This document shows, piece by piece, positions 27,901 to 61,694 of a stretch of 64,000 nt of DNA (its first letter is position 1; each line of letters opens with the position of its first letter). Where the stretch lies: NCBI GenBank assembly GCA_051362555.1, contig CM120645.1:8246001-8310000 (forward strand), in the 5' to 3' direction. This DNA is from Lingula anatina. Its lineage: Eukaryota > Animalia > Brachiopoda. The position numbers and the translations under genes were made by a program. Under the pieces are notes generated by a model that worked only from the letters and a program-made list of their open reading frames with translations, was not told where the DNA came from and made no database searches.

Positions 27901-30628
27901 TGGATATCTATATTTAAATAATATTTACCCCTTAGTTCCTAGTTTTGACTTCTGCCATTAACAGTGCTATGTTAGATAAAGAGCAATTGGATAATTATTT
28001 AATCCTTTGTTTTTTTAGGGGGTGACATTTAATTTATTTTGTGCTCTATGCTTTTAAAACTGTCTCTTAAAATATTCTGTGGTATTTTTAAAGAAAAAAA
28101 AAATCAAAATTTAATACCAAAGGTTGAATTCTGTCCAAATAGGTGCGCCAGTCTGGATCTAACAGTGCAACAGCGCTTCCGCTGGGTCAACTGCCGCATT
28201 GACACCGAACCAGTGAGGGGGCTCCTATCCCGACAGCTGTACCGCCGCCTCATCAGCAAATATGGCGGCCGTTTACCCCCGTCGGATGATCCAGTCTATC
28301 GCGCCGTGGAATGGGTGATATGTGTGTGGCAGAGATTGAACGATGGCCTGGGAAAACTGGGGCTACCAGAGCTAGTGTTTGGGCCTAGTCATTTCTTGGT
28401 GTGCCCTATAGAGGTGAATCAGCCCAAGAATATTCTCAGGTAAGCCTGGGGTCAAATACAGTAGACGTTTGGATAAGTGTGTCAGTTGTTTGAGATATTC
28501 TGGGCCTGGGAAAACTGGGGCTACCAGAGCTAGTGTTTGGGCCTAGTCATTTCTTGGTGTGCCCTATAGAGGTGAATCAGCCCAAGAATATTCTCAGGTA
28601 AGCCTGGGGTCAAATACAGTAGACGTTTGGATAAGTGTGTCAGTTGTTTGAGATATTCAAGGATTTGAGCTTGGTAATGTTTAAATATCCTCAGCTAATT
28701 GCAAAAAAAAAAAATGCAAAGATTTGAGCTTGTTAATGTCTATATGCCCTCAGCTAATTTCAAAAAGAAAAAAGAAGAAAAAAGTGACATGACTCACCTA
28801 TAACAGTTTCTTTGTAAAAAGTACATATGACTTTTTAGATCTTTCTAAATATTATCTGCTGAAATCTTGGTTCTATAGAGAATAAAAGACAACAGGTTCA
28901 CACATGATCAGTCTCATCTCATCTTTCTTCTATTGTAACAACAGCAGCATTAAGGGAACAGCATATATCCTTTGTGTCTAAGAATTGTAGATATATTACT
29001 ATTATAAGTTTTATATTTATAAACTTTTTAGGCTGTTTCTGAATGCTGTTACAATTCAGCATTTTGTTTTTACTTTATTTTTGTATAGCTGCAATTGTAC
29101 AAATATAAAACATTTTCTCATTCAGGTGGTTGAGTTTGCTGTGGAACCACACAATTGCACCTGCAGTGTCCGAGGCTGTGGTCAGGGGTTCAGGGGCCGC
29201 AGACGTCACTTCAGAAGGACAACAGAAAGTAGTGAACACTGCTCTGTATGTGTTAATGCAGCGCTCAGTGGTCACTGGATGTCCACTCAGTGGTCAAGGT
29301 GAGGCCCTTTTTGGGAAATTGGTGATTCAATAAAAGATCAAGTAAATGTCTGGTTATTTATAGCCGACTTAATCATGTATGATGATTATTTAGCACAAGC
29401 TGAAAATATTTGCCATACTGTTCAGGGCCAGATCCAGATATATTCTCTGACAGTCTTCCAAATTATCTTTGTTGATTCTTCCTCAATTTTGACCATCTTC
29501 CAACAAAAAAAATGAGATACCCGTCAATGTAAACTTGAAAAATTCTGACCGTTTTCCAGGAGACCCAGAAAACAGCTTCCATCCGCCCCTGCGGTTAGCT
29601 TTATAGATATGTTACCTACAGTTAAGATTTTGAAAGTATAGTTAAAAACAAAATTTTTTTTTTAATTTTCACAGAAAAAGAGCGCTACCTCTCCAGTTTC
29701 CATGGAAGCAATGAACTTGACATTCAGATGAGAGAGAGGGGTCGTCACCGTGGTCACAGAGAAATGTCGCCAGTGTTGACACCAGATTTGTCACCAGATG
29801 ACGCCACTGCTTCACCACTCAAACAGTTTGAAGTGGCTAAAACTCATGAGGATCTGGCGTTGAGGTCAGTCTATGTACAGACATTGCCTTTTTAATTATT
29901 TGTAGAAAAGCAGGAAGGCAATCACCATGTTAAAAGTGTAAGTGAGAAGGAAATGACAGAATGAATTTTGGGATATGCTGCATTACTTTTGAACAAATAA
30001 AACACACTGTGTACCATGAAGAGTAGGGCCAAGTGAGAGGAAATGAGACATATTATTACCCTGTAAAATGAGAATAATTTTTTAAAATGTTAATTTCAGT
30101 TCCAAAAGGCCAATATCAAGTTTCCATGAAGGCAGATCATCCAGTTTCTCTTCCCCCTCCTCCACCTCCTCGGCATTCTCATCATCAGCACTGGGTAAAG
30201 CAGCACCACCTAGCAGTATCAATGTTCCCACAAGTAGATCAGAGACAGAACTCAATTACATGCAGAAGAAAATGCGCAGACACGAAATCAGCTCGGATGG
30301 AAAATCTGGGTCACCACGGTGTGGCATGGCCGTGCCTGTCAGGAAGTACGACTTAAACGTAGGGGGAGCTGGTGGAGGGAGATCAAGTCCAGTTCGATCT
30401 CGAAGCCCTCCAGATCCAATGATTCATATTGGAGCTGCACAGAGTCTATCTCTTCTTACAGACGATGCTAATTTGTCATCTTTTGATAATAAAAATGGCA
30501 CACAATCGGTGACAGAGCCGAGAGCGCAGTCCATGACTCAGAGACTGCGAGAGGACTACTTTAGGGACATGATGACACCTGCTAGGACAGAAAAAAGCCC
30601 AAGTCCAGAAATCCAGAAAGTGCAATAG
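777..30628 (+). CDS. CTTNBP2: Cortactin-binding protein 2 orthologue, long isoform, 20 coding exons, about 1580 aa
   Basis: The 20 exons listed below all have AG/GT ends and consistent phases (sum 4743 nt, stop at 30626-30628). Motifs: CortBP2 N-terminus (LLSYLEGELQARDVVI; DPFYALQRD; KHAQDTAQGDDVTYMLEKERERL), PPPIPPNKP, ankyrin repeats, C-terminal P-loop domain. The start is the ATG at 789 or lies in an exon upstream. Confidence 0.93.
1225..1288. repeat. (CT)n(CA)n microsatellite
   Basis: Direct reading. Confidence 0.95.
2755..3207 (+). repeat. Dispersed repeat family B (one full and one partial copy)
   Basis: ggggagtctcactagattac..gctgtaagggggtaattaac..gggagttaggtcgatct; inverted copy at about 43527-43740. 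Confidence 0.7.
4746..4900 (+). mobile_element. Dispersed MITE family A copy
   Basis: Shares caaaaatggaggatggatca..aaagataatttggaagactgtcagaaaatatctctggatc with 29423-29591, 47268-47421 and 54478-54646. Confidence 0.8.
5238..5307. repeat. (CA)n microsatellite
   Basis: Direct reading. Confidence 0.95.
8983..9222 (+). CDS. CTTNBP2: CTTNBP2 exon 2
   Basis: AEKARQVLYQAKYGRVGLADPFYALQRD...KKYHK; 240 nt, phase 0-0. Confidence 0.9.
9570..9677 (+). CDS. CTTNBP2: CTTNBP2 exon 3
   Basis: VLSELEDEKRKHAQDTAQGDDVTYMLEKERERLRNE; AG/GT ends. Confidence 0.92.
11967..13217 (+). CDS. CTTNBP2: CTTNBP2 exon 4 (coiled coil plus Pro-rich region)
   Basis: ORF 12009-13238; ttgtag acceptor; cag|gtttgt donor after 13217; read-through stop ends at 13238. 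Confidence 0.9.
18476..18584 (+). CDS. CTTNBP2: CTTNBP2 exon 5
   Basis: QLPSDPNRPMSSSDNNLDFLGQEMADLQELLVSMAT; NAGNAG acceptor, g|gtaaag donor; phase fits exon 6. Confidence 0.78.
22717..22998 (+). CDS. CTTNBP2: CTTNBP2 exon 6 (Ser-rich, first ankyrin repeat)
   Basis: DGKNALHLAVECGHF; AG/GT ends. Confidence 0.88.
23187..23289 (+). CDS. CTTNBP2: CTTNBP2 exon 7 (ankyrin)
   Basis: ECLKLLLEHGANPN...GLTPLHAAAKLG. Confidence 0.9.
23530..23680 (+). CDS. CTTNBP2: CTTNBP2 exon 8 (ankyrin)
   Basis: GWTPLVWSAYSGHTDICKLLL; gtaagt donor. Confidence 0.9.
24305..24514 (+). CDS. CTTNBP2: CTTNBP2 exon 9 (ankyrin)
   Basis: EGWTCAHAATQAGHTECIELLL...VNVADVEGRTIAHMAA. Confidence 0.9.
24520..24995 (+). repeat. 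Degenerate tandem repeat of about 103 bp (about 4.6 copies) filling CTTNBP2 intron 9 and running into exon 10
   Basis: Unit tcataaaatt..aagacctgccatc...ag gactgcttgaccttgatgacctctcac; acceptor-position dinucleotides end at 24552, 24654, 24755, 24860 and 24964. Confidence 0.85.
24965..25082 (+). CDS. CTTNBP2: CTTNBP2 exon 10
   Basis: DCLTLMTTHCDLDLDCRDKNGRTVYDVASKACKELLESL; phases fit neighbours. Confidence 0.87.
25353..25643 (+). CDS. CTTNBP2: CTTNBP2 exon 11
   Basis: ORF 25370-25654; AG/GT ends, phase 1-1. Confidence 0.87.
25959..26054 (+). CDS. CTTNBP2: CTTNBP2 exon 12
   Basis: QHSWSPGTPSTKSPFEILCNNETKKISIELF. Confidence 0.85.
26280..26359 (+). CDS. CTTNBP2: CTTNBP2 exon 13
   Basis: GCQDALSYETLIPATTLQNYLRL. 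Confidence 0.88.
26612..26698 (+). CDS. CTTNBP2: CTTNBP2 exon 14 (Walker A-like GPVGSSKT)
   Basis: IEQYKNVVFYGPVGSSKTYLARTLAYCIQ. Confidence 0.9.
27045..27300 (+). CDS. CTTNBP2: CTTNBP2 exon 15 (Walker B-like ILILDD)
   Basis: ORF 27087-27308; AG/GT ends. Confidence 0.88.
27724..27793 (+). CDS. CTTNBP2: CTTNBP2 exon 16
   Basis: FYLTENCYIIGTMDRT, AAA+ sensor-1-like strand. Confidence 0.88.
28143..28439 (+). CDS. CTTNBP2: CTTNBP2 exon 17
   Basis: LDLTVQQRFRWV...VWQRLNDGLGKLGLPELVFGPSHFLVCP. Confidence 0.9.
28345..28658 (+). repeat. 156-bp tandem duplication spanning the exon 17 splice donor
   Basis: 28345-28500 equals 28503-28658 by eye. Confidence 0.9.
29126..29298 (+). CDS. CTTNBP2: CTTNBP2 exon 18
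   Basis: WLSLLWNHTIAPAVSEAV...VLMQRSVVTGCPL. Confidence 0.9.
29423..29591 (-). mobile_element. MITE family A copy with both CAGGGGCGGAT-type termini
   Basis: cagggccagatccaga ... catccgcccctg; reverse complement of the family A core. Confidence 0.75.
29675..29864 (+). CDS. CTTNBP2: CTTNBP2 exon 19
   Basis: Open frame KERYLSSFHGSNELDIQM...; AG/GT ends; phase 1-2. Confidence 0.82.
30100..30628 (+). CDS. CTTNBP2: CTTNBP2 terminal exon 20
   Basis: tttcag acceptor; Ser-rich open frame continuous with ORF 30260-30628 to TAG. Confidence 0.85.
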
Positions 30629-30950
30629 ATGCGAGTCACTGTTTACTAGAGTTAATCTGAATTCCATATCATATTAAATGCCATGTAAAATAGCATGTAG
30701 CTATACACAATGTACAAGAATGTAATGAATATGTAGATTTGCATGTTAAGTGTATACATCTTAATGTGATGTCATTAGCAATGATTTTTACAGCGTAAGG
30801 GGTAGAGAGGAATTCTATTTGTGATTTCAAGGAATTTTTTTCATAACTGTAATTTTGTTCACCTTGGAAAGCCGATCAGCCTTAAGCAGTTGTTATACCT
30901 CATCCCAGTTTGTATTGAAAATATATTTCAGAAACTGGGGATCAACATAT

Positions 30951-30952
30951 AT

Positions 30953-31003
<51 letters not shown>

Positions 31004-31006
31004 TTT
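30951..31006. repeat. (ATTT)n microsatellite downstream of the CTTNBP2 stop
   Basis: Direct reading. Confidence 0.9.
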
Positions 31007-33279
31007 TAGAGAGGGAAGCTGGATATTCTCTCAATTGCCCTCAATCATCAGTAAATAAATGTCTGTATATATGCAGGATATAGCAACTCCAAAATATTTC
31101 ATGACAATAATCCTCATGAGATAAAGTGCTAAAATATGGAAGAAATACAATTTTAATTATTGTGCTAACAATTAAGTATAGGTAAATTTTATCTTGTAAA
31201 TATTAAAAGGGCACAAGAGCAATATGATACATATATGGTCAAGAAATGTGGGAGTTCATTGGTTTGAGTGGGGGCAGTTGGGGTTAGGAATTTACAACAC
31301 AAACTTAGATTTATTATCATCATGGGAGAAGTAGTAGGAATGATGAACGTTTTAAAGCTGGAGGCTCAGAGGGTGGGTTGGTTGCTGTTAATACAGCATA
31401 GTAATATCAACTGCACATTTGACAATTATTTGTGTAGCTGCTGAAATGCCAATCTGGATGGTGTTGACATTGTGTGATTGAATTGAGGGAGGTTCACGTT
31501 ATAATATGATGCCATTTTTACTTCATACAGGAACATGCATATCAAATGCAAAGAACAAGAAATCCAGAGGGAATGTGAATATGAGCTAGATGTATAAGAA
31601 GGCATGTGGCTTAAAAAAACAATGTCGCATACAGTTTTAATTCCCTGTTTTCAGGGGCTGTTCTTAAACCTGGTTAATAGATGGGTAAAAAAAAAGAACA
31701 CTGTTTATCATACCAGCTGTTTTTAAAACCAAACTTGGACTTGATTTAATTTTATCTTATGGGCTGGTCTCTTAGTCTTTTCTATTCATTTTTCTTAAAA
31801 AGGGACATCACTAAAATGGTACCAAGAAAGAAAGTGGTGCCAAGTTGGTATTTGAAAAAGGATAAATGTCAGCATGATCACTGGAGGATTCAGCAATGGA
31901 AGGGGGGGGTGAGGGGGTACCACCTTTCTCTCTCCACGAAAAAGTACAAGTTAAATGAAATTTAACCAAATACTTTTTCATTCCCACCCGTACCATACAA
32001 ATTACATAAAAATTGACCTTTTATAGTATTTTGTATTTGCTTTACTTCATCTGTCAAAAATAGCCTTGTTCTCCCCCCCCCCATATCATCAAACCCCTGG
32101 ATCCAAGAGTGCATCATTCATTTTATAGTGTCATTACACAGTTTAGTAATAATGTAGATAATTGACCATATCATGAGGGCGAGTCTTTTTATCATCTCAC
32201 TTTGTGCCATCATCAACAGTATTGTGTACATCTCGCTTGCGTTTTGCTGCCTTTTAGTTCAGTTTACTCTCTGTACTTTACACTTTACAAAAATTGTGCT
32301 GTACTGTGCTGCCAAATTATCAGAAAAACATTGATGTAGATCAAATGTTCCAAAATGTATGCAAAGAATATTACTAAGACAGTTATGAAGAACTGTCCTA
32401 AGTTTTGGTATGGGCCATTTTGTATTTTCTATGATACTAATCATATGATTATGATAAATATGGTAGTAAATTGTAATAGTAACTTTTCTTTATGTTTGCT
32501 CTGAGGCAATGCAAACATAAAACTCTAGGTTCAAAGTGAAAAGTTTGTTTGAGTTGTACTTTTCAGTAGTGACAATTTATTTTATGAGTAGAATGAGCAT
32601 ACATTGTGTAGGGCTAAATATCAATATTAAATTTCAATAAAGAGATGGTATTTTCTCCTCTCATAATAATGATTAACATGAGTTGATTTTTATTAAAAAT
32701 GTGAAGAAAGTACCTTTGTGCACAGGCTTGAATAAATTTTTCACAATCCCTACCTTCAAATTGGAATGCCTTAACAAATATAGATCTGTTTGCTAATCCA
32801 GTTTTTATGTTAAGATGACCCATTATTTAATTGAATAGTATGCTTTTGATATGATAACTCCATACAAGTCTTTATAAAAGACTTACTACCATTATTGCCT
32901 TCATATTGTAAGGTTCTTGCATCATGGGATTAAAAAAATCAATAAATAATTTCTCCTTAATTTTTACCCCTGCTGATGTATATTGTTAATCATCATTCAT
33001 TGCTACATTTATCAGTTAAAATAACGAATGCCAAATGAATTTTAATGTATCAGGTTTCAAAACGCCAATGCAAGATTTTATTAAATCTTTGTTTAACTCC
33101 TTTATTCTTTGACGCCAAGCACATGTTCATTTGTTCTGTTTAATTGTAATATACAGTGGGTATTAAAATGGACCATAGGTTTATACAAGCATTTATTCTG
33201 CACTTGTTTATATTAAAATATTGTATGGGGTATTGCCCTTAAGTATTATTTTTCTGTTAAAAATCCATACTTTATGTTA

Positions 33280-33361
33280 CAGGCCCGTAGCCAATAATTT
33301 CAAAAGTTTTTTTTTTTCCTGAAAAAGTGGACCTTTTACCATGAAACCTAGATCGGCAAAA

Positions 33362-33438: not shown

Positions 33439-33914
33439 TGTCAAGTGCTTGCTTAATGACGCTGTCTGAAAAGTAAATCAGAACAAAATGGACCCAGATA
33501 AGAGAAAGCATTCTTGTTACTTGCGCTCAGACGTGCAGAGCTGAATCTGCGCGAGGGAAATTCATAAGAAACATGGTTGCATGTTTGAATCCTGTTCTCT
33601 AGTCTCCTAGTCAAGCAGAACTCTTGTTTCAAACGAATTAATTTCTGTATAAAGAACGTCCAAGCGAGTTCGTCACAGGGGCTGATCCAGGATAATTTGA
33701 AGGGGGGTCAGGGACGATAGGCCTCTGATGCGAAGCCGACCATCGCCCCCTTTGTGTAGGGTTCGGACCTGCTCAAGGGTGTTTTGGAGAACAAACAGTG
33801 CCCTTTTGTGCGGTTTAGAACTATAATTTAGTTCGACGAAATCCTACGTTCACGAGGGGAATATTGGTGTGATATATTTTTCAGAAACCGAAGGGAGATT
33901 CAGGACCCCGTGAC

Positions 33915-34090
33915 GGGTGTGCCTAATTACCGTCGACAACCGAGCACAACCGAGCACTACCGAACACTACCGTCCACAAGCACTAATTACCGTCCACAAG
34001 CAATAAATACCGCACACAAGCGTCCTCCCGTATGAAATAGTTGTAAAATCAACTAATAGTTAGAAATTTAGCATAAGATGGTGATTTATT
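33915..34090 (+). repeat. Left TIR with internal ACCGAGCACA / ACCGTCCACAAGCA short repeats (probable transposase-binding sites)
   Basis: Reverse complement of 42742-42917. Confidence 0.92.
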
Positions 34091-34524
34091 GGAAAAAACG
34101 GTCTCTGTACGTGTATAAATATAAGCCACATTTGTGCACTTTTAACAGCAGTAACGCTTTTTTAACAGCTTTTATCCAAGTGCAGCGACGCATTTTTATC
34201 TAATCTCAAAACCAAATTCTAAGTTTATTTATTTATTGTATTATTCTATTATTTTACTCTGTACATTGCTCCGAAAGGAAAATGATTTCCGAATTTTATA
34301 ATTGGCTAAATTAACTCTTATCTTATTATATCTAAATGTGGTTATTTCAATAAATAAAAAGAATATTACGAATCTATAGTTTCACCCTACTTCGTTTTTA
34401 GAATGATTGAATGAAGGACGGTTATAAGCGTACATAAAGAATGTTTTTATCTACTATGGATAGAATAGAACTTTTCCGGTAATTTAATATTCCACTTTAG
34501 TGGACCTTTTAAACATTCGCCGAC

Positions 34525-35045
34525 TAGGCGCGCCTCCGGTATACTTTAAAGTAAAATTGAAATTCTAATTACCTTTGATCATTCAAAGACAGATAAGTTG
34601 ATTGACGTAGGTCGGTCGCGTGCCTCCGGTAAACGTTGAAGCAGAACTGAAATTCTAATTACCTTTTATCATCTGGAGGCAGATAAGTTGATTGGCGTTG
34701 GTCGACCGTGTGCCTCTGGTATATATATTTTTACTTGCCTTTGATCATCAAGGTACAGGTGAGGTGATTACAATCAGGGATAAGCCGGGTGCGTGCCTCC
34801 GGTAACTTTATGCTAATTACCTTTGATCAGCCGAGGACCAGCTTCGAGGTAAGTTAAAGTGATAACAATCAGGGGTTCGCCCGTCGCGTGCCCCCGGCAA
34901 ACAGATCGTACTTACCTTTGATCATCTACGGACTGGTAAGATGATTTCAATCAGGGGTACCCCGGTCGTGAGCCAATGATGTTTGGAGCCAAGAGTGCTG
35001 AATACATAAAAAGCAAGTGTCCTCCGTTGGTTATCCATCATTCCA
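34525..35045 (+). promoter_or_regulatory. Putative SGNH-gene promoter: five 76-95-bp units each with CCTTTGATC (TCF/LEF-type site), then CCAAT, CATAAAA and a TCATTC initiator-like motif
   Basis: CCTTTGATC at 34572, 34738, 34820 and 34915; CCTTTTATC at 34662; CCAAT at 34973; CATAAAA at 35005; TCATTC at 35038; ATG at 35049. Confidence 0.55.
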
Positions 35046-35048
35046 ACC

Positions 35049-35651
35049 ATGTCTGGAAAGCAAGACGGGCCGAGTATTCTTATCTTAGGAGACTCTCACA
35101 TCAGGCGGTTGCGGGACGACCATTTGCGAGCCCCAGGTGAATGTAGACGACATATGGATCCTCAATTCTGTCTCCGCTCGGCGAAAGTTACCTTGTATGG
35201 TGTCGGAGGGTTGACGGCCGTGCACTTTGACCGTAGCCGTCAACACTTCGACATCATACGAAGAACCAAAGCTGATATTGTCTATATTCACTTGGGGGTG
35301 AATGATCTCCTGCCACCACGGCGTAGGGGCTCCAAGAAGAAAACTCTGGCACCTGAAGACCTGGCTCAGGTTCTCCTTCACCTGGCCAGGAGAGTGAAGG
35401 CATGCGGAGTAAGGCAGGTCATCGTTGGAGAGATACTTCCGCTATCTCCCGGGACAAATGAAAACGTTATGAAAGCGGTCAAGAAATGCAATACATTAGT
35501 CAAAGACGCTTTATTGCATGAAGAGGGTGTACGCTTTTGGAGTCACACGCGACTCAGGAGGCCCAACACTTCGTATTTTAAGGAGGATGGTCTGCACCTC
35601 TCGGCATCAGGTTACTTTTACCTGTATAAGAGCGCATTCTCAACGAATTAA
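35049..35651 (+). CDS. SGNH/GDSL-family hydrolase (esterase/lipase-like), intronless, transposon-borne, 200 aa
   Basis: Block I ILILGDSH, block II GVGG, block III IHLGVNDL, block V DGLHL. The last approximately 7 codons derive from an inverted-repeat arm. Confidence 0.88.
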   Translation: MSGKQDGPSILILGDSHIRRLRDDHLRAPGECRRHMDPQFCLRSAKVTLYGVGGLTAVHFDRSRQHFDIIRRTKADIVYIHLGVNDLLPPRRRGSKKKTLAPEDLAQVLLHLARRVKACGVRQVIVGEILPLSPGTNENVMKAVKKCNTLVKDALLHEEGVRFWSHTRLRRPNTSYFKEDGLHLSASGYFYLYKSAFSTN

Positions 35652-36176
35652 GCCAGGCTTTACAAAGCCGGTGACCTAAAAATGGCGGACGTACATGAAA
35701 GAAAAACCGCCTAATCTTTTAATAGTCTCTCCGCCTCTCACACGCCTCCCCACACGTCGTCCCTGCGGGGTACAGTAATTAAATCTCGGCTCCGAACATT
35801 AATATTTCCGTGAATATCTCTGGTGATATTATCTCCGTAGATAGTCGATTCATTGCTGCTCTATGGGCCAAATTATTCCTTTTTCGTCTCTGTTTTCAAA
35901 GATAATAGAACAGAAGAGCTTTTTTCCTTCGATCGCCTTCAGCCACCGTGCTTTCTTCACCACGAGTTTAACTGATGAGCATGCGCACTTAATATTTCTC
36001 AGGTAGCTTCCGCATGGCGAACGGAGCCGAGATTTAATTACTGTACCCCGCAGGGACGACGTGTGGGGAGGCGGAGAGACTATTAAAAGATTAGGCGGTT
36101 TTTCTTTCATGTACGTCCGCCATTTTTAGGTCACCGGCTTTGTAAAGCCTGGCTTAATTCGTTGAGAATGCGCTCT
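35629..36176. repeat. Inverted repeat: arms 35629-35794 and 36022-36176, 227-bp spacer
   Basis: Arms are reverse complements apart from an 11-nt extra segment in the left arm. Confidence 0.9.
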
Positions 36177-36763
36177 AAATCCCTTCGGGGAGCCCTTGTC
36201 TCTTCGAACTCTCAATTTTGAGGGTAATTTTCAAAGGCCCTTTTCAGGGCCACCAAATTTATCGAAAAGCTATCCCAACTTGTTCAACAGTTAAAGCTCA
36301 AACGGACATACTAGGCATTCCTAGTAGACAGGCATTCAACTAGTCAGTAGGTTGGAACATATTGTAAGCCTTTCCTGAGATAAGTGGGTGGTCCTGAAAA
36401 GGACCGTTTATTGAATGTAGATGAGTCTTCATTGATCTGAGGCAACTTTTGGAGGCACCCTGGTACCACTGCCGGGTACTCTTAGTGATCTGCTTCCAAT
36501 TTGGTAGGAGCCAGGTCGTATTACCAATCTGAGCTATCGTCCAGGGTCGTAGTGTCGCAGACTTTTCACATGGGCCGAATGTCAAATCTGAAAAGAACCC
36601 GCCCCCTAAACGCAGGCAACACAATCAAGGAATTGCTGAAAGATAATCCCTTCACTTATTAGTATCATTTAAAACCGATACCTGGTCAGAAATACCAAAT
36701 ATCAATTACTTCATAAAACTGGTCGTAGAGTCGCACTTATGCGTTTATTTTTATTATTATTGT

Positions 36764-37445
36764 AACTGCTAGGGTAACCCACCACGTAGCAGAAGGAAGA
36801 ATATCTTTACACGTCTTTTTATTTAAACTGCTAGGGTAACCCACCACGTAGCAGAAAGAAAAATATCTTTACGCGTCTTTTTATTTAAACTGCTAGGGTA
36901 ACCCACCACGTAGCAGAAAGAAGAATATCTTTACGCGTTTTTTTATTTAAACTGCTAGGGTAACCCACCACGTAGCAGAAAGAAGAATATCTTTACGCGT
37001 CTTTTTATTTAAACTGCTAGGGTAACCCACCACGTAGCAGAAAGAAAAATATCTTTACGCGTCTTTTTATTTAAACTGCTAGGGTAACCCACCACGTAGC
37101 AGAAGGAAGAATATCTTTACGCGTTTTTTTATTTAAACTGCTAGGGTAACCCACCACGTAGCAGAAGGGGAAAAATCACTTTACGCGTCTTTTTATTTAA
37201 ACTGCTAGGGTAACCCACCACGTAGCAGAAAGAAGAATATCTTTACGCGTCTTTTTATTTAAACTGCTAGGGTAACCCACCACGTAGCAGAAGGGGAAAA
37301 ATCACTTTACGCGTTTATTTTATTTTATTCTATTCCAATTTATTTCATTCTGATTTATTTGATTTGATTTGGGAAACTGCTACCACGTAGCATAAGGAAA
37401 ATATCATTTGGCGTTCTTTTTATTGAAACTGCTAAAGTAACCCAT
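36764..37445. repeat. 62-bp minisatellite, 9 copies plus degenerate tail
   Basis: Unit aactgctagggtaacccaccacgtagcagaaagaagaatatctttacgcgtctttttattta starts at 36764, 36826, 36888, 36950, 37012, 37074, 37136, 37200 and 37262. Confidence 0.95.
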
Positions 37446-37504
37446 ATCTTTTATCTCTTTTTCTTTCTATTTAAAAAAAGTCATCATTTTACGCGAGTTT
37501 GGTT

Positions 37505-40488
37505 TCATTTTTGCGGTTGGGCCCTTTCGCTTCTGCATCTCTTTCGCTGCCCTGGCTTTTTGGCTGTGGTGGGGGTGTTCGGTATTTTCAGCTTTCCATC
37601 TGTAGACACAATGGGATGAGTTCCGGGTGAGCTGGATCGATGTTGTATAAATTTTTTGTACAACATATTCTTTTGGGTGTCACTTTTTGTAGCCCACGCG
37701 GCATTCGCAACGCGAAATCTCTGCATCCACGGAGCTAGCTCAAAATTGCCACAACCATAAATTGCCCTCCTGGCATCGGCCGACTGCAGTTTCACTATTT
37801 GGTAAAGTTTGTCAACTAATTCGGGTAACCGTTGAGTTTTAAAATATTGTTCATGGACTCACAGGCGTTGTTTGTCCATGAATACGGTACACATTTGTTA
37901 TGTAAGGAAGGAATAAAAACTTTTTGGCGTAATTTTGGAACTAACCCGGAAAAGTAAGGTCCAAACGCCGGAGCCGAAGTTTCGTATTTGGTTTGTAAGT
38001 TTAAAACTTTGTTATCAAAGTCATACTCGTCTTCACTTATGAGAAGCCCCTGTCTTCCGAATACGTCCCTAACTATTTCTTGTTTTTCTCTATCGTGCAC
38101 GTTTAACTGTGTGAGATGACGTCGCATATTTTCCTCCAAATGGCGCGAGCACAACAGGAACGTCGCGTTTGGAAAGCACATTTGCAACGCGTTCGTAAGC
38201 GCTTTCTCTTCGTCCGAACCAACAATTAGATTTGAAAAGGCCAAGGTGAACGCGCTATCGTTATTGTTTACGAGATCTTTACCTATTTTCGCCTGTAGAT
38301 GAGAAAAAAAGCGTTGATACGTCTCAAATTCTCCGTCCCAATGTAAGAAAATTGGCCCTAAGAAAATGGGCGGTTGCTGCGTATTTTGTCGAATAAGTTT
38401 CGCGTTTTTGTACACAACTGTCGTGACGTAGCAGGCTCCAATATTAAAAGTTCTGTCAACTCCAATACAGCTGCTGGTCTTCCCTCCTGAGCATATAGCG
38501 CGTAACTCCTCTAACTGATCTTCTGTGTAAAGTATGATAGAAGGTGGCTTACATTGTTTCTTGCCGGTGGTTTTACTTTGGATTATTTCTTGAATCATTT
38601 CATGGTCCATCATCATTGATTGAATATGTTGAATGTCATCGGCGTTATTACGACGGTTTTGGTGGGGCATCTCGTTTCTATTACGCTGGTATTTTATATT
38701 TTGGACCTGCTTTAAGTCTCGCGGCGCGTTTTCGGGTTCTTCCGTTACCAACTTCGAATACACTTCCCTAGCTGGAGCATCCTTCACGAGTTCCTTAACG
38801 CGTCCTTTAAGCTGGTGTGGCACTTTGACATACTCACGTTTAGATTTTTTGGCGTTGCCATGAACAGAAACAATTTGCGGCCAAGTCCCTACGTATTCAA
38901 CTATTGCCACAGAATCCGATAAGGGCCTTTTCTCTTTCACTGAATCGGGCACTTTTTCAAGCCAGGTGATTCTTCTCTTTAAGGCACTCTGTCTTTTTAA
39001 AGAAGAGTAATGGTGTTTCATGGTGAGGATTTCCCATGGCGATGGTTGAGGGACCAACGGTGTCCAGGCTTTTCGAACGATAGTTCCGTAACTTCCTTCT
39101 TTCTCAATGACGAATTTTAAACGTCCTTCTGTATGAATATAATGGCTCGACTTTGTAGAGGAACGCTTGCTATCCCATACCCCACAGTCATCTGTAAACT
39201 GACTCTTTGCCCCCCTTTCATGTCGTTTTCGATTGTCACTGTTGTTTACAACAAAATAGACGTTTTCTTTTATTCCACGCGGTATGTTGGATTCGACTTT
39301 CGGTGGGTCGCAAACTATACTTAACAGGGTTTCTGGTGTTTGAAATTTAGTAATGCTTATTCCAAGCATTTCTGGCAAGTCGCTTCCGCCTTCGGAGTTT
39401 GAATCGGGAGTAAAAACAAAATCGCCGTTTTCGTCGTCAGAAATATCTATGATGGAAACAATGTCGCCCTTTTCGTCGTCGGAAATATCTATGACGTCAG
39501 TGGGTGCCGAGTCGGTCACTGGGGGGCTCATGGAGATGGAGGATGCGTCTTTACGTGGTCGCTTCTGAGGTGGTGTTTCAGGATCTTCAAGATCATGTAC
39601 TGGGGAACTGATCTCCTTATTCGAACACTCAATAAGCGGAACGAAATGGTCCGGAGTCCAAATACCACTACCCTCGCCGGTGCCACCGCAACGGGACCAC
39701 ATAACTACTACTGGGGTCATGCAATTGTTTAACCGTAGCCTTGGCTGAAAGGTTTGTCCCATGCATCCCACTGCCGGATCGAGTAATCCGTTCATAGGAG
39801 GATAGACAGATGTTATTGGGCGACCGACAACAGAAGAAAGAGCGTGTATTGTCCATCCAGTGGATTCGTTCCCTTTGACACAATCCATTCGCGCGTCATT
39901 ATAATCAGCATTCATGGCCTCCCAGTAATTGTCAGTGTGCTGTAGCTTATAGAACCGTTCATTTTCAAACATTTCCACACTGCAACGGACGCGAAGCTCA
40001 TTTGCCAATCTCTCAGAACCACAAAGAGCAACAGAAACAGAATTGAACAAACAACTGCCGTCACCGGAGACGCGGATTGGTTTTCTACCTTTTGGGACGC
40101 CCCTACATAACACCAAAATGTCCACTGCAGTAGAATCTACAGTAAGGCCTTCACCAGCAGAGAAATGGTGAAGGCTGCCTTGAAAGTGAGTTGTACTTAC
40201 CCCAAAAATCTTCATGAACATGCCTTCTTGTCGTACTGCTTCTTCAAGGTTATTTGGGGCAAAACCTTTAAGGCGTACCAGGGCTTGGTGAAAGTCATAA
40301 TCTCCACCTGGGGCTGAATTACAACTTTTGCACCAATACCCTAGCCTACTTTGCCCCAAAGCCTTGAAATCTGCCTCTGTTAACCCCTGGCATTCTTTAT
40401 GAAACCAGGAATTACAGGACTCGCATAATATGGACACCGTGTAGGCAGTGTTCTTCCTGCAATCGCCACATGGATATCTCTTAGGCAT
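37505..40488 (-). CDS. PHD finger / vertnin-like OTU protease / tandem SIM / MULE DDE transposase; main ORF 40488-37816 (890 aa), C-terminal ~110 aa continuing in the -1 frame to 37505
   Basis: PHD C7,C10,C22,C25,H30,C33,C53,C56. OTU GDGSC146LFNSVSVAL..ELRVR..VEM and WTPDH281FVP. NLS PQKRPRK. VIDISDDE and IIDISDDE. Transposase VD678RTFN, SD759EEKAL, C780SRH783, TNNACE877SMN. Tail RLPELVDKLYQIVKLQ...STDGKL...KKPGQRKR. Confidence 0.88.
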
Positions 40489-40559
40489 CTTTGCGGTAAA
40501 GATTTCGAATCACGGGTTCGTGGAATCGCTCGGATGTATATTCAGGGAGCCAAAGCTAT

Positions 40560-40883
40560 GAATGAAGGCAGGTACTGGATTGAGCGTGGCTTTTATAGGA
40601 TTTTCAGACAAAAACATACGTAATGAAGCAAGATTAGGTTAAGCGTGGGCAGTCAACTTACCTGTTCATGCATAATCAAAGGTATTAAAAAAGAAATTGA
40701 CAGGGGACACCTACTCTATACCCATGGCAACTGATCTTATCAGTAGTGTCACGCGTCAGCACAGGGGCAATCAACTTACCTGCCCATGCATAATCAAAGA
40801 CATTTCAAAAGAAATTGACAGGGGACACCTACTCTTTACCCATGGCAACTGATCTTATCAGTATTGTGACACGTCAGCACAGG
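40560..40883 (-). promoter_or_regulatory. Putative transposase promoter: 2 x 118-bp direct repeat, TATAAAA, TCATTC
   Basis: Repeat units 40647-40764 and 40765-40883, each with CTTTGAT and GTTGCCATGG on the - strand; TATAAAA at 40597-40591; TCATTC at 40565-40560; ATG at 40488. Confidence 0.55.
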
Positions 40884-41298
40884 CTAGATCGTTTTGACAC
40901 GTGGGATAAACAAGACATGCCACGGAACAACAGTTCCATTTTTTAATAAACTCAAAAAGCAAACGATGTGTATACGTTACAAAAGTTTTTGTCATACAAT
41001 GTGTTACAGTGTATATAATTTTTCACGATTATGTATATATATATACCTGCACCTACATGAATTAAGTACACATTATCAAGCATAAATCTTTTATTCTTTC
41101 TTTTATTATATCGATTAGTTTCCATAGCTTTATTAAGCAGTTTTATATAATTTCTATCGTATAATTCTTTGTATTTATGAATATTACATGCATTAATGTA
41201 CAAAATGTGTAAAATACTTATTCTGAATTTTTTTTAGATGGGTCACAATCGAATAAATAATAATACTCATCTCCTATTGCCTTTCGTGACACTCCTTA

Positions 41299-41434
41299 AC
41301 AAGTGGCACACGCTCTGTTTACGTGGTAACTGATAATATCAGCATCTTTTACAGGTGGCACACGCTCTGTTTACATGGTAACTGATATTATCAGCACCTT
41401 TTACAGGTGGCACACGCTGTTTGCAAGGTAACTG
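41299..41434. repeat. 52-bp tandem repeat, about 2.6 copies, inside the transposon
   Basis: aca(a/g)gtggcacacgct...ggtaactg units at 41299, 41351 and 41403. Confidence 0.85.
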
Positions 41435-41898
41435 GTAACGTCAATTGTCGGCATCGTCTGTTTAGCTCGATCTGACACGGGTTAGAGAAAAAATATAGCC
41501 AAAAATTATAATAATAAATAAATTGATCCTTTATGAAAATAAAGAATAAAGTATTTACGTGAATAAATAAGGCATTGACATCAAGCCTTAAACGTAAAAA
41601 CATAAAAAGAAGGTCGTGACGTATTCATAATGAAAAAATTGAAGTATAGAATGAAATAAAAGATAAATTGAAACAAAGCTGTCAAATGCACGAACCAACA
41701 TCAGTAATGGATCTGTTTAACGTCAGAAAGCTTCGGGTGAAAACTTTTCATTTCGTAAAACATCAGGTGAAATATTTTCATTTTGTTAAACCAATAACCT
41801 GCAGTTTTAAGGAAATTACAATAAAATCAATGAAAAAAATTATAAGCTTTTTATTGCAAAGACGTCTTATTAAACGTAAAATTTAGTGGTGGTTGGCG

Positions 41899-42290
41899 TG
41901 GATGCATATGTCGTCTAAATTCACTTGGGGCTCGCAAATGATCGTCCCACAATCGCTTGATGTGAGAGTCGCCAAGAGGAGAATACTCGGTCCGCCTTGC
42001 TTTCGACACACGGTTAGGGTGATGGATACACTTGCACTTGCTTTTAATATTCTGCACACTTAGGTTGCAATTATTATAATTGTCGCGCGACCGGCGTATC
42101 CCTGATTGACTTAAACTGTCCGTAGATGATCAAATACGACTAGAAATAAGTTTAGGGGAGGCATGCGACGGGCTGGCCTCGAAGGTAATCATAATTCTAA
42201 TTGCACTTAAAAGTTTATCGGAGGAATGCGACTGGACGGCCCTGATTGCCAACAACTTACCGGACCTGGGATGATCAAAAGTAATAAGAC
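41899..42290 (-). pseudogene. Degenerate inverted copy of the SGNH promoter and first ~38 codons
   Basis: Minus strand reads LGDSHIKRLWDDHLRAPSEFRRHMHP versus LGDSHIRRLRDDHLRAPGECRRHMDP; ATG replaced by GTG; upstream tttgatcatctacggac and aaaagcaagtg blocks shared. Confidence 0.85.
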
Positions 42291-42741
42291 TTTAAATCTT
42301 TCGTCAGGACAAGACACTTACTTTTATGAACATCTTACAAAATTTCAGATTATATTTTGGCTAATAAACAACATTTCAACAAGATCTTTACTCCCGTCCC
42401 AAAAATGAAAATGATCGAGGTTTTGACAGAAAAGTAACACCGACTATTGCTATTGCTATGCACATTTGTCGGACCTGAATTGTCAATAAACAATTGTTTT
42501 ATTTCTCATCTGATATTGCTTGAAATAACCGCATTCAGTGCACTAATGTAGCTTTTACGCGTAACGATATGTATTACTGTATACTTATGAACGTTTTTCC
42601 CCTTTTTGCATTTTGGAAGCCTAGCATACAACAGTTAACATCGTTTAACGTAGTTTTCAATGCAACAAATGTGACAATTAAGTGAGGTCCTCCGTTTTGA
42701 AAACGTCTGCAGACCTGTTTTTTTTTTTTTTTTTTTTTTTT

Positions 42742-42917
42742 AATAAAGCACCATCTTATGTTAAATTTCTAACTATTAGTTAATTTTACAACTATTTCAT
42801 ATGGGAGGACGCTTGTGTGCGGTATTTATTGCTTGTGGACGGTAATTAGTGCTTGTGGACGGTAGTGTTCGGTTGTGCTCGGTTGTGCTCGGTTGTCGAC
42901 GGTAATTAGGTACACCG
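42742..42917 (-). repeat. Right TIR
   Basis: Reverse complement of 33915-34090; followed directly by the TSD. Confidence 0.92.
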
Positions 42918-43064
42918 CCCCGTGACCCCCCTCTAAATCAGCCACTGCGTCACTTCCGGCGTAGATCGACATTACAGGTGTGGCAAAAAGTGAAAAGCGC
43001 AGTTCGCAGAAATTTGAGTGTTCTTCTGACCCTTTACATGTTAAAATGTCATGGAAATTTTATT

Positions 43065-43740: not shown

Positions 43741-46347
43741 GCCTCGACTCCCCCCCTCCCACCACCACCACCACCAAGTGGTAGTTTACAAATTGTGTCT
43801 CTACCGATCAAGTCAACATATAATAAATTGAAAAGCGACATAATTCTGTGATTACTAGCCCTTAGACCGACAATGCTACGGTATGTCCTTTTGAATGAGG
43901 TATACATCTTTTTCCGATACGACAACACACTCGTAAGATCAGATGTCGATTGGTGTGGATGGATATGGACTATATTGAACCTACCGTGTGGTCGCATAAA
44001 GAATAATAGATAAGGCCGCCCAACATCTGAGTGGGTTTCTGAGGAAAAAAATTAAAACTATCGGTTGAGCAGGCCCCGAATCCCACAAGGGGGGCAATGG
44101 TCGGCTTCGCATCCGAGGCCTGTCGTTTTAGACCCCCCCCCCCCCCCCCTTCAAATAATCTTGGATCTGTCCCTGGTGTATGTCAAGAATGATGCGTTGC
44201 GTGTTGTTAACGATCGCTATGCATTCTCAACACGAGTGGCCAGTTTGTTTGTCGCAGCTCGATACGTTCAAATGTGTTCCATATCTTTGTGGTCAAATAT
44301 CATTTAATCACGGTGCTCATTTATCACGCGGTAGTATTCCTCAAACTGATCCTCATCTTTTAAATCATTTAAAGACTGAAAAAGGGCGTTTCAAACTACA
44401 AATGACTTCTACAGAGCGAAAAAAGAACAATAAACATGCACGTGGAAAATCAGGAAAAAGACTTTCTACAATGACAACTGCACTCAATTATCACTGAAAT
44501 ACATTTTAAAAAATCCTCTGAAAAGCAGTGTTATTTCTTTCAATTTTGATTAAACATTTTAAATGATTTAGAACATTACACAACATTACCCATATCAAAA
44601 CACACTGCATGGGTGCAACAGAGTGTACAAATACAAAAAATTCTCTTTATTTACAGCATAAAAGAAATTACAAGAAAAAAAGATATGAAAAAAAAATCAT
44701 TGCCTCCATACAAATTTTAATTTTAAGATACATGTAACAACATGCAAAATGACTCTGTAAAAATAAAAGATTAATTATTATCGTCAACTATGTACAACGT
44801 GCAGGTACAGAGAAATATAACAGAATAACAAAAAATAAAATAAAATAAGCAAATAGTCATGTACATGTATATATTGATGCCAGATAATCTATTCTTTCTA
44901 TTATTAACTTATTGAACTTTTCCTAAATTTAATAGTAAAAGACGCTGGCATATGTGAAAAGTCGCTCATATTACATTTAATTACATTCATACAAAGAAAA
45001 AGACTGGTCACTAATCATCTGCCCAATAGATAACAATTTCTCAGTTAACTTTCAGAAGGACAACGAACACCAAAGTTGACCCAACTTGAGAAATGGCATT
45101 GAGCCCATGTCATGGAACCAAAGGCTCATTCAGATTCACACATCTTACTGGCTGGGTCGGTCCAACTCTGCGGGTTTTTTTCCCTGAAATGCAATCAGTG
45201 AAATCAGTTTAATCATCACATGATAGTTAATTACCCCCTAGCTGTTCTAGGATGCGTGTCAGACAATTAAGGTGATTGCACTATAACGAGAATCCTCCGC
45301 AGATTTGGCCCGACCCACTTAGTACGATTTTCGAATCTGAATGTGGTCCAATATCAAAATTTGATTGTGAGCGGTGCTTTTCTCAACCAGAAAGGCGATT
45401 CGTTCAACATGCCCCCCCCCCCCACCACCAACAACAATAACCCCATCCCCGAGCCTGGTGCCCCTACTATGGGCCTGCAGTAGCCCCCCGAGGCTTCGGC
45501 TAACCCTTACATGATCTAATAACATGGGACATTCCTAGGACTATCATTCATGTCACAACACCATTGATTATGATCTGCCCAGGTCGTAATTAAAGGGGAA
45601 AATTTGAGGAATTACATCGGGGCATTTGTAAGCTCAGTGCCTGTGCAATATTTCATGCACACATTCGAGATGAACAAAGCCAAGATATTTAGTTACTCGG
45701 TTCACATATAATTAAAATGTACTGTGTGATAAAGAGACAGAATGCCAATATTATCAATATACTCGACGTACTTCAGTCTTGGGAGTTCAACCCCCTTGAA
45801 CTCATAGGGTAGAACTTCACACCTGAAAGAACACTGATCAATTTGTGCAGTTTACCAATGGTTGATTAAACCAACATCGATCGTTGTCGGTATTATGTAA
45901 TAGAATAGACTAGAATGGTTTTATTATTGTGGCAAATGTATACAGGTATACCCCCGGCCACTGAACAAAACTGGCCACAGGCTGAAAGAAGTTCAGTTTA
46001 CCCCAGGGTCAAAGGATGCTGCTCATAAATAACTTTGAAAAACAGCCGAATTATCTCACGGCCGTCCGTTCACGAAGGATTGACCACGTGACAACGCAGG
46101 AAAATCACCAGTATCAGTCCGCGGCGTAATGTACACTTTCCCGTTGGTGACGAACTGGAAAAGACGCTTGGTGACGTCGAGTAATAGATTAAAACCTTTC
46201 AATCGTGCTAAAAAGATAAATATTTCATCTGCGGCTGCTTGACCACTTTTTGTTCGTTCTTTTCATACAGTCGCTTAAGTTACCTCATAAGGAGTCATTA
46301 GGTGAATATAACTGACCAAGGTCCGCACCGGAGAGCGTGTATAAAGC

Positions 46348-60566: not shown

Positions 60567-61694
60567 TTTGGTGGTCCTCAGGTCGTTCTTCGGTATCTGT
60601 TTTGCCTTTTTAATCCCAGTTTGTATCAGTTGTCTTGGGTATTGTCTCCTTAATAGGAATCCTTCCAGATCTTTGAGCCTTTGTTTTAATGTGGTTTCAT
60701 TTGAGACAATTATGCATAGTCTTCGAGCTAGATTGTATGGTATATTGTGCTTAATGTGTCTGGGATGACACGAGTTAAAAAGGAGATATTGTTGAACAAT
60801 TGATCATGCTGAACAAAACAGCGTGCATGGGATACAACAATATAATCCAACTAACTTTATACCATATCACCCCAGTACGAACAAAGGAAACCGACAAATC
60901 CAAAATTAAAAAGGAACCCATACCGTACATATCAACATATAATCAAAAAAATCCGGAAGTACACAATGTCATAACTGGAAACTTACCTTTGGTAAAACAA
61001 GATGACAAAATGAATGAGATACTAACTGAAATGCAGATTATAAAGAGTAAGAGACAAAGTCCATCACTTAAGCAAATTTTAACAAAAGCAAAATTTGAAA
61101 ACAATTCCAGGACAAATGTGGAAACCTCAACAATACGAGTACAGAAATGTGAGGTACCCAGGTGCGGCACCTGTCCACTAATTAAAGAGGGGAGCCATCT
61201 TACATTTAAAAATGGACTTACATTTAGAATTAAACACCCATTCACCTGCACTAGCTCAAATTTAATTTATGTATTAACTTGCAGTGGATGCGGTGAGAAC
61301 TATATAGGACAAACTGGAGACACTCTCAGACATAGAATGACCGTTCACAGACAACAAATAAGACAACCTAAATATCAGTGCACGTCTGTGAGTGGGCACA
61401 TTAGGGAATGCTCTATGAACAAAAACAAGGACTTTACGGTATTCCCATTTTATAAATTCACTAGGGAAACAACCCAAACAGAAAGGGAAATGAAAGAAAA
61501 TCTATTCATTAATTAGTATAAACCTACATTGAATAGATAATATCATTGGTAAAAGCAGCAATTAAACACCCATTGTTACAGACGTCACATTTTAGCCCTT
61601 ATGACATCACCTAGTAACAAATAAACAAAACCTCCTGAAGAAAGAATGAAACCGGTCGCGGCAAAATAGCTGCTCTTCTTTGTTTTCTTTTTAT

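Follow-up and report, generated by a model that had tools for sequence, protein, structure and literature searches.

The 64-kb window analyzed here (the whole stretch of 64,000 nucleotides from Lingula anatina, contig CM120645.1) contains, at positions 33,915 to 42,917, a Mutator-like element (MULE) in which a gene for an SGNH/GDSL esterase and a gene for a PHD-OTU-MULE transposase point inward from opposite ends, with two facing histone-type stem-loops between them. The element is real; the copy in the window has been damaged twice, and intact forms of both genes are found in contigs of the DNA runs X1, X2 and X4. Its features are the following (positions are those of the window; TIR, terminal inverted repeat; TSD, target-site duplication; MITE, miniature inverted-repeat transposable element; UTR, untranslated region).

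33906..33914, left 9-bp TSD, CCCCGTGAC, the same letters as 42918-42926
33915..34098, + strand, left TIR, carrying 10- and 20-bp internal tandem repeats
34528..35048, + strand, five to six putative promoter modules of ~90 bp with a CCAAT box and a TATA-like box, 5' of the SGNH gene
35049..35629, + strand, SGNH/GDSL esterase gene, codons 1-193; in the window copy the frame reads on into the MITE as far as a stop codon at 35651
35630..36175, nested high-copy MITE, with the TAA duplication at 35627-35629 and 36176-36178
36177..36221, + strand, native final 14 SGNH codons and stop, with the family tail S-x-R-G-A
36231..36276, + strand, histone 3' stem-loop 1 (stem 36236-36251) and purine-rich downstream element; RF00032, 36.8 bits, cut-off 34
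36366..36410, - strand, histone 3' stem-loop 2 (stem 36405-36390) and downstream element; RF00032, 34.1 bits
36757..37325, 62-bp tandem array of 9.1 copies, in the presumed 3' UTR of the transposase
37505..40488, - strand, PHD-OTU-MULE transposase gene; single exon, frameshifted here, with 19 nt missing at 37832
40597..40883, - strand, TATA box (40597) and two 118-bp modules of the transposase's own, kin to the SGNH modules
41299..41438, 52-bp repeats kin to the 118-bp modules
41900..42300, - strand, remnant of an inverted SGNH copy, comprising promoter modules and codons 1-38 in decayed form, 77.5% over 249 nt
42734..42917, - strand, right TIR, pairing with the left TIR
42918..42926, right 9-bp TSD, within the right end of a high-copy host repeat

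Ends, copies and coding genes of the element

The TIRs are 96.0% identical over 176 nt, as the original prediction had it, and the repeat extends to 184 nt at 95.1% identity; the terminal base is a G/C mismatch and the start of the TIR forms an imperfect palindrome. Long TIRs with internal repeats (here 184 bp, 95%) and TSDs of 8-11 bp are typical of MULEs, and the predicted 9-bp TSD is exact on both sides, with a chance of 7.6e-7 given the composition of the window. The insertion lies within a high-copy repeat of the host, whose right end it interrupts, and the two flanks are joined in contigs of all four DNA runs (33895>42918 and 33895>42926, the letters between being unread). This gene-less repeat, represented by 33677-33914 and 42918-42947, has CAG(G/T)GGCTGA at its ends, and a related piece is present at 44065-44175.

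Contig depth, which is a rough guide only and not a copy number, gives a ratio of SGNH to transposase of 0.96, 0.98 and 1.14 in X1, X2 and X4, respectively, with both genes at 1.8-3.8 times the right flank. This excess of about two- to fourfold, together with a flank contig of X2 that stops short of entering the TIR, suggests other genomic sites, no second TSD having been read. Run X9 is without the young transposase core, yet contains diverged pieces of the SGNH gene, the module and the transposase. In run X1, the joints 34438/42503 and 42046>42329 connect left-arm to right-arm sequence and bypass the modules, as if related elements had exchanged arms. Relatives at 88-95% are also represented among the contigs. 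The named relatives belong to molluscs, a tunicate, a nemertean and a lancelet.

The single-exon transposase matches the PHD, OTU and MULE profiles of Pfam, each just under the cut-off (for MULE, PF10551, E 1e-3), and its homologues match PF00872 above the cut-off. All residues of the predicted D..D..CxxH..E signature are present (D678, D759, C780xxH783 and E877), and W871 completes the DDE triad with (C/D)xxH and W that characterizes MULEs; the C4HC3 pattern of the PHD and the C147/H281 pair of the OTU domain are also present. In the window the frame ends early, at 37816. Homologues extend about 110 residues further, matching the frame 37795-37505, and the 19 extra nucleotides found at 37832 in contigs of X1, X2 and X4 restore the frame into this C-terminal piece. 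The defect hence lies in the window copy (or in the way it was assembled) and not in the family, and the copy itself is without the intact transposase of an autonomous element.

Homologues of the transposase number 45 proteins at E<=1e-10, and most of the full-length ones that were scanned carry PHD and/or OTU. By this sequence comparison, PHD-OTU-MULE is a widespread animal family and the PHD-OTU part is family-wide. The original prediction had taken a transposase combining PHD, OTU and a SUMO-interacting motif (SIM) as special to this element, a view that is not supported, since the family is widespread, an OTU-bearing MULE is in print and the SIM is unconserved. The two SIM-like motifs derive from a local 42-bp duplication and are found in none of the 11 homologues with a parsable linker (three others are unparsable); the SIM was therefore rejected as a family trait.

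The SGNH gene is also a single exon, and its product scores above the cut-off for Lipase_GDSL_2 of Pfam. The S, G, N and DxxH residues of SGNH hydrolases are all present (S16, G54, N85, D180 and H183), and the predicted model has the corresponding fold, with a confidence score (predicted local distance difference test, pLDDT) of 92 and a template modeling (TM) score of about 0.7 to SGNH structures. Fold searches with the model returned generic SGNH hydrolases only, and a search of the PDB with the single sequence gave no match; by profile, the best solved relative is the esterase of ZfL2-1 ORF1p (4c1b, E 5e-12). As read from the profile alignment, H81 corresponds to the transposon-specific H191 and the S228 position is Gly or Glu. 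The protein has no signal peptide and contains a basic RRRGSKKK loop.

The MITE nested in this gene is 546 bp long, with inverted ends of ~165 bp and a depth >100,000; from its TAA site we take it to be of the PIF/Harbinger type. Contigs of X1, X2 and X4 show the gene joined up without the MITE (35626>36176), and the frame past the MITE supplies the S-x-R-G-A tail, which is found in 31 of 40 SGNH homologues. The inverted repeat at the SGNH end is perfect, and a Mu-killer-like hairpin RNA arising from it was considered; this was rejected, because the repeat is the nested MITE. Thus the predicted pair of intronless genes stands as regards the single-exon frames facing inward, but neither gene is intact in the window (19 nt lost in one, the MITE in the other).

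The promoter blocks of the two genes are of common origin, their modules giving homology scores of 58 and 37 against shuffle maxima of 38 and 25. Homologous modules upstream of both genes had been predicted; the homology holds, but the modules at the right end are part of the decayed SGNH copy rather than of the transposase itself, upstream of which stand a separate TATA box and two 118-bp modules. The right-arm remnant also holds a TATA box, has lost its start codon and is frameshifted by a 1-nt deletion; six of its changes are silent and ten are not, which is near neutral. The arm duplicates have diverged by about 15-23%, with the left SGNH still open. Decay of the right-arm copy while the left one stayed open indicates a long residence of SGNH in the lineage, and so an old pairing. 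Homology in the AT-rich arm middles (score 30, shuffle maximum 33) is not above that of shuffles. Five of the eight CCTTTGAT sites of the window, presumably TCF/LEF consensus sites, lie in promoter modules (34572, 34738, 34820, 34915 and 40682), where they adjoin GGTAAG and AATCAGGG motifs; being copies of one module, they are not independent.

Histone-type stem-loops between the two genes

The spacer that had been described as repeat-rich does contain repeats; its actual content is the nested MITE, the two histone stem-loops and the 62-bp array. The convergent stem-loops are the only Rfam matches in the 64 kb, both past the gathering score of RF00032, and neither hammerheads nor other RNA families of Rfam were found in the window; the expected number of like hairpin patterns in a shuffled window is 0.04. 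Each hairpin consists of a six-pair stem and a four-base loop. Next comes ACC(A/C)A and then, as judged by eye, a tract rich in purines, 10-12 nt downstream; stem-loop sequence and downstream element of a histone 3' end are thus both in place. About 55 nt are common to both hairpins including the downstream element, which none of 300 shuffles equalled. One compensatory pair distinguishes the two hairpins (in five rows, too few for statistics; 96 of 500 shuffles do as well), and stem-loop 2 keeps six of six pairs despite the double change.

Stem-loop 1 begins 14 nt past the native SGNH stop, and one contig of X2 spans from the MITE-less SGNH end through this stem-loop to 36404. Stem-loop 2 has no preceding gene except the transposase, and from this arrangement it is likely to represent the end of the transposase mRNA. 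A related copy, with the joint 36233>36355, matches across 36355-36405. Two other assignments of stem-loop 2 were rejected: for the end of a broken second SGNH gene no upstream homology is found (152 of 300 shuffles are as good), and for a third gene ahead of it no frame fits. On the minus strand, a good splice acceptor lies at 36588-36597, between the 62-bp array and stem-loop 2, and a weak donor at ~37490, past the transposase stop; an intron in the 3' UTR between these sites would place stem-loop 2 within ~200 nt of the stop. The histone-type 3' ends are a better handle on co-regulation of the two genes than the promoter modules.

The identical stem was found three times in G001, a bacterial bin with animal contigs, in no case behind a histone gene and once 19 nt past the stop of a RING gene. 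The latter lies in a compact cluster with kinase, OTU-like and RING genes (L123, G001:C209), which shares a 52-nt histone stem-loop block, at 90%, with a compact cluster containing a TnpB/Fanzor-like gene (L124, G001:C18); both are possibly virus-like or giant mobile elements. A histone stem-loop is located 24 nt past a 103-residue non-histone open frame that adjoins a long interspersed nuclear element (LINE; L125:891-955, G001:C185). Viral contigs contained no relative of the transposase or SGNH and no match to the hairpin pattern.

Probable origin and upkeep of the SGNH gene

Searches with the SGNH protein gave 163 representatives at E<=1e-3; among 20 that were looked up, those with names are lancelet hypothetical proteins or bear automatic esterase labels. 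In G001 there are 21 matches on 20 contigs, 13 of which are elements with reverse transcriptase (RT) and/or tyrosine recombinase (nine with a Pfam integrase match, five with direct repeats), six are LINE ORF1s (five with APE and RT matches in Pfam) and one is a Tpt1 fusion. In this last contig (L112:2-1147, G001:C915) SGNH is fused to a Tpt1/KptA RNA 2'-phosphotransferase (PF01885, E 1.5e-40) and followed by an unknown open reading frame (ORF). On none of the 20 contigs does a match share its place with the transposase studied here. The four top-scoring matches to the window SGNH are all recombinase elements, and a quick tree of 43 rows groups four recombinase-element SGNHs with the window SGNH (support 93), apart from the LINE esterases.

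In the 13 retrotransposon contigs, nothing but the SGNH ORFs matches the element, which contains no remnant of gag, RT or recombinase; the set of gag, RT-RNase H, tyrosine recombinase and split direct repeats that defines Ngaro/DIRS elements is absent from it. The strict hairpin was not found in any of the 13 contigs. A word-seeded search for SGNH gave none among 135 candidates, and neither of the two proteins with longer fused SGNH forms carries a transposase. Such hydrolases have reportedly been linked with Ngaro-type elements, the context seen here in G001, although the portions available of PMC3783388 and PMC3266345 do not contain the link. The affinities described above make it likely that the gene was captured from tyrosine-recombinase retrotransposons or, more broadly, from the pool of retrotransposon esterases. 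Capture of SGNH has been reported for rotifer long terminal repeat (LTR) elements (PMC5408684) and fish Helitrons (PMC4021074).

Regarding the upkeep of the gene, the variant rows (40 displayed of 712, genomic context unknown) include 12 in SGNH, eight of which are silent (p 0.002-0.008 for the displayed rows). These mostly silent variants, the intact alleles, the equal depth of both genes in three samples and the decayed second SGNH start together support, at the level of sequence, a convergent two-gene MULE with a maintained second gene; the lines of evidence agree, none being decisive. The originally proposed MuDR-like layout with a hydrolase as second gene is therefore supported in its convergence and maintenance, but an obligate system is opposed by the related loci, none of which carries SGNH or a stem-loop (see below), by a PHD-OTU part present throughout the family, by the unconserved SIM and by the near-absence of sense reads from four RNA runs.

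Interpretation and comparison with known elements

We interpret the locus as a damaged copy of a low-copy animal MULE whose intact alleles encode a PHD-OTU-MULE transposase and an SGNH esterase, the latter likely captured from a tyrosine-recombinase retrotransposon; for its two mRNAs, the predicted 3' ends are the facing histone stem-loops. The odds of this reading as a whole appear evenly balanced. According to it, the U7 small nuclear ribonucleoprotein (snRNP) and the stem-loop binding protein (SLBP) would cut and bind both RNAs in the fashion of histone mRNAs, and the resulting messages would be non-polyadenylated, present in S phase and storable in oocytes. Cutting by the transposase might then fall in S phase or early cleavage, with a sister chromatid at hand to repair the donor site, and in founder cells of the germ line. 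Repair from the sister chromatid after cutting raises copy number. With less assurance, the esterase may be an intracellular acyl-esterase that acts on membrane lipids or acylated proteins and helps transposition without being needed, as does the ZfL2-1 ORF1p esterase. We advance only tentatively the broader proposal of a cut-and-paste transposon with both genes in the U7/SLBP pathway (expressed in S phase only, stockpiled in eggs and invisible to poly(A) methods) that would exemplify a wider habit of animal mobile DNA, with SGNH as a recurring MULE accessory.

Several observations weigh against this interpretation. Among 84 related transposase loci (41 with the 3' end plus 150 nt, and 12 of the first 80 with 2.5 kb downstream) none has SGNH and none has the hairpin, and Rfam gave no match in 20 of the longer loci. 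Moreover, L002 is a complete 8.3-kb foldback-type MULE with a transposase of the same family and long, repetitive TIRs, in which a second gene was not found. It follows that the pairing of transposase and SGNH is lineage-specific, and the idea of SGNH as a dedicated partner of the transposase family is not supported. Stem-loop 2 lies 1,099 nt from the transposase stop, and 16 AATAAA motifs occur on the transposase strand between 36407 and 37419, so that upstream polyadenylation is possible and the use of stem-loop 2 less sure. The quick tree leaves the donor unresolved inside the group of support 93 (unstarred), and silent variants become five of nine (p 0.04-0.09) without three 5' rows that possibly come from remnants.

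The expression data add to these points. Four RNA runs were read to 6-25% each (two poly(A)-selected and two unspecified, tissues unknown); sense depth in the stranded runs was <=0.4 for SGNH and <=1.1 for the transposase, versus 2-57 on a host exon, and SGNH reads were mostly antisense, from diverged copies. No RNA ends were seen at the hairpins in the few reads of the four runs. The predicted co-regulation of both genes thus finds no counterpart in co-expression in these runs, which, given their poly(A)-selected or unspecified libraries and unknown tissues, test the histone-end model poorly.

The absence of SGNH from the 84 loci and from the complete L002 would also be accounted for if the gene were a passenger resembling those of Pack-MULEs, captured with its promoter and hairpin in one young subfamily and idle in transposition, the silent variants stemming from retrotransposon copies or the donor's past. 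This SGNH family is normally retrotransposon cargo, the window gene has been hit by the MITE and the second copy has decayed. Yet the element retains nothing of gag, RT or recombinase, the strict hairpin is missing from the 13 retrotransposon contigs, the gene stayed open while the arm duplicate diverged, and X9 retains diverged SGNH together with module and transposase pieces. We therefore consider an idle passenger somewhat unlikely.

Another explanation confines the histone pathway to the SGNH mRNA; the transposase mRNA would receive its poly(A) tail within the AT-rich repeats, and hairpin 2 would be left over from the old inverted duplication of the arms or from a third gene since lost. 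The 1.1 kb and many AATAAA motifs that precede hairpin 2 are in line with this, and so is the fact that the hairpins are homologous and inverted, like the arms. However, hairpin 2 keeps its six pairs and passes the Rfam cut-off, in contrast to the decayed arm remnant; no reading frame, SGNH-like or otherwise, ends ahead of this hairpin, and the related copy matches across 36355-36405. We consider a histone end for SGNH alone unlikely. An anti-silencing role, as originally suggested, in which the hydrolase would strip repressive marks together with PHD-OTU-SIM in the manner of VANC for VANDAL, is highly improbable: PHD and OTU catalytic residues are intact, the basic loop could be a nuclear signal and CpG is undepleted (observed/expected 0.85-1.28 in the element versus 0.47-0.50 in host exons), but PHD-OTU occurs without SGNH across the family, the SIM is unconserved, undepleted CpG fits the youth of the element as well, and the ZfL2-1 esterase failed to deacetylate histone-derived peptides (PMC3905857).

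Returning to the convergent two-gene MULE with facing stem-loops, its closest analogues in layout are known two-gene MULEs. In maize MuDR, the genes are convergent, as they are here. Besides MuDR (mudrA/mudrB), this group includes yeast Mutyl (mutB) and Arabidopsis Hiun/VANDAL (vanB, vanC), with which our element has in common long TIRs, a 9-bp TSD, a MULE transposase and an extra gene within the TIRs (PMC6446971). It differs in its SGNH esterase and histone-type 3' signals, the available parts of the tables and supplements of PMC6446971 containing no hydrolase ORF and no account of 3' signals of the histone type. OTU or PHD domains are joined to the transposase also in the animal MULEs MuDR-6_HM (OTU) and Rehavkus (PHD), while hydra and lancelet MULEs have Ulp1 (PMC6446971); Ginger1 transposons carry OTU, Ulp1 and PHD, and a role of such domains in the ubiquitin pathway has already been proposed (PMC2836005). 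Compared by description, all of these are single-ORF elements, unlike the present one with its separate gene and N-terminal PHD-OTU. Aedes Muta1, a 3.2-kb element with a single 504-aa transposase and no second gene, resembles it in the long TIR, the 10-bp imperfect palindromic end starting from GGGT, the short tandem subterminal repeats and the DDE, (C/D)xxH and W residues (PMC5499845).

Transposon SGNH esterases have been described in ORF1p of ZfL2-1, CR1, RTEX and Penelope (PMC3905857), in ORF3 of rotifer LTR elements (PMC5408684) and in texim of fish Helitrons (PMC4021074). The window protein shares with them the fold and the catalytic residues, and in the profile alignment H81 lies at the position of H191 (PMC3905857), but its gene stands alone, within a DDE element of the cut-and-paste type, and the protein has no coiled coil or RT and is non-Ser at the S228 position. 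The ZfL2-1 esterase hydrolyses short esters, binds acidic lipids and enhances retrotransposition while being dispensable for it (PMC3905857). The stem-loop and downstream element constitute the requirements of U7 snRNP and SLBP, in a hairpin that has been termed unique to histone mRNAs and couples them to DNA synthesis (PMC2781718), and maternal SLBP stores histone-type RNAs in oocytes (PMC6239174). The present 3' ends resemble those of replication-dependent histone genes in the six-pair stem, four-base loop, ACC(C/A)A, purine-rich element, close spacing past the stop and intronless gene, and differ in standing behind non-histone transposon genes and as a facing pair.

Each part of the element is known, and the combination appears undescribed, in agreement with the original prediction. 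Neither an SGNH gene in a MULE nor a histone stem-loop in a transposon was found in the literature searched, with Repbase, Dfam and subscription journals, which may catalogue the architecture, lying outside its scope; the portions available of PMC7599744, PMC6431247, PMC3783388, PMC3266345 and PMC5718144 contain nothing on either. If our interpretation is correct, the element would be a DNA transposon whose built-in cell-cycle timer favours gains in copy number and transmission through the germ line, and poly(A) RNA-seq would fail to detect it. Its use of the histone 3'-end pathway would break the rule that this pathway serves histone mRNAs alone (as described in PMC2781718). It would also show that transposon esterases occur in a DDE element, which moves without an RNA intermediate, offering a test of the membrane/ribonucleoprotein model built for retrotransposons, and RF00032 matches behind transposon genes would provide a simple genome-wide screen.

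Outside the element, a host gene on the plus strand occupies 11967-13238 and 30086-33300 of the window, its last exon ending ~600 nt before the element; it resembles CTTNBP2 and has no match in Pfam. A GIY-YIG endonuclease frame (PF01541, E 2e-4) at 60779-61516 is probably a Penelope-like remnant.

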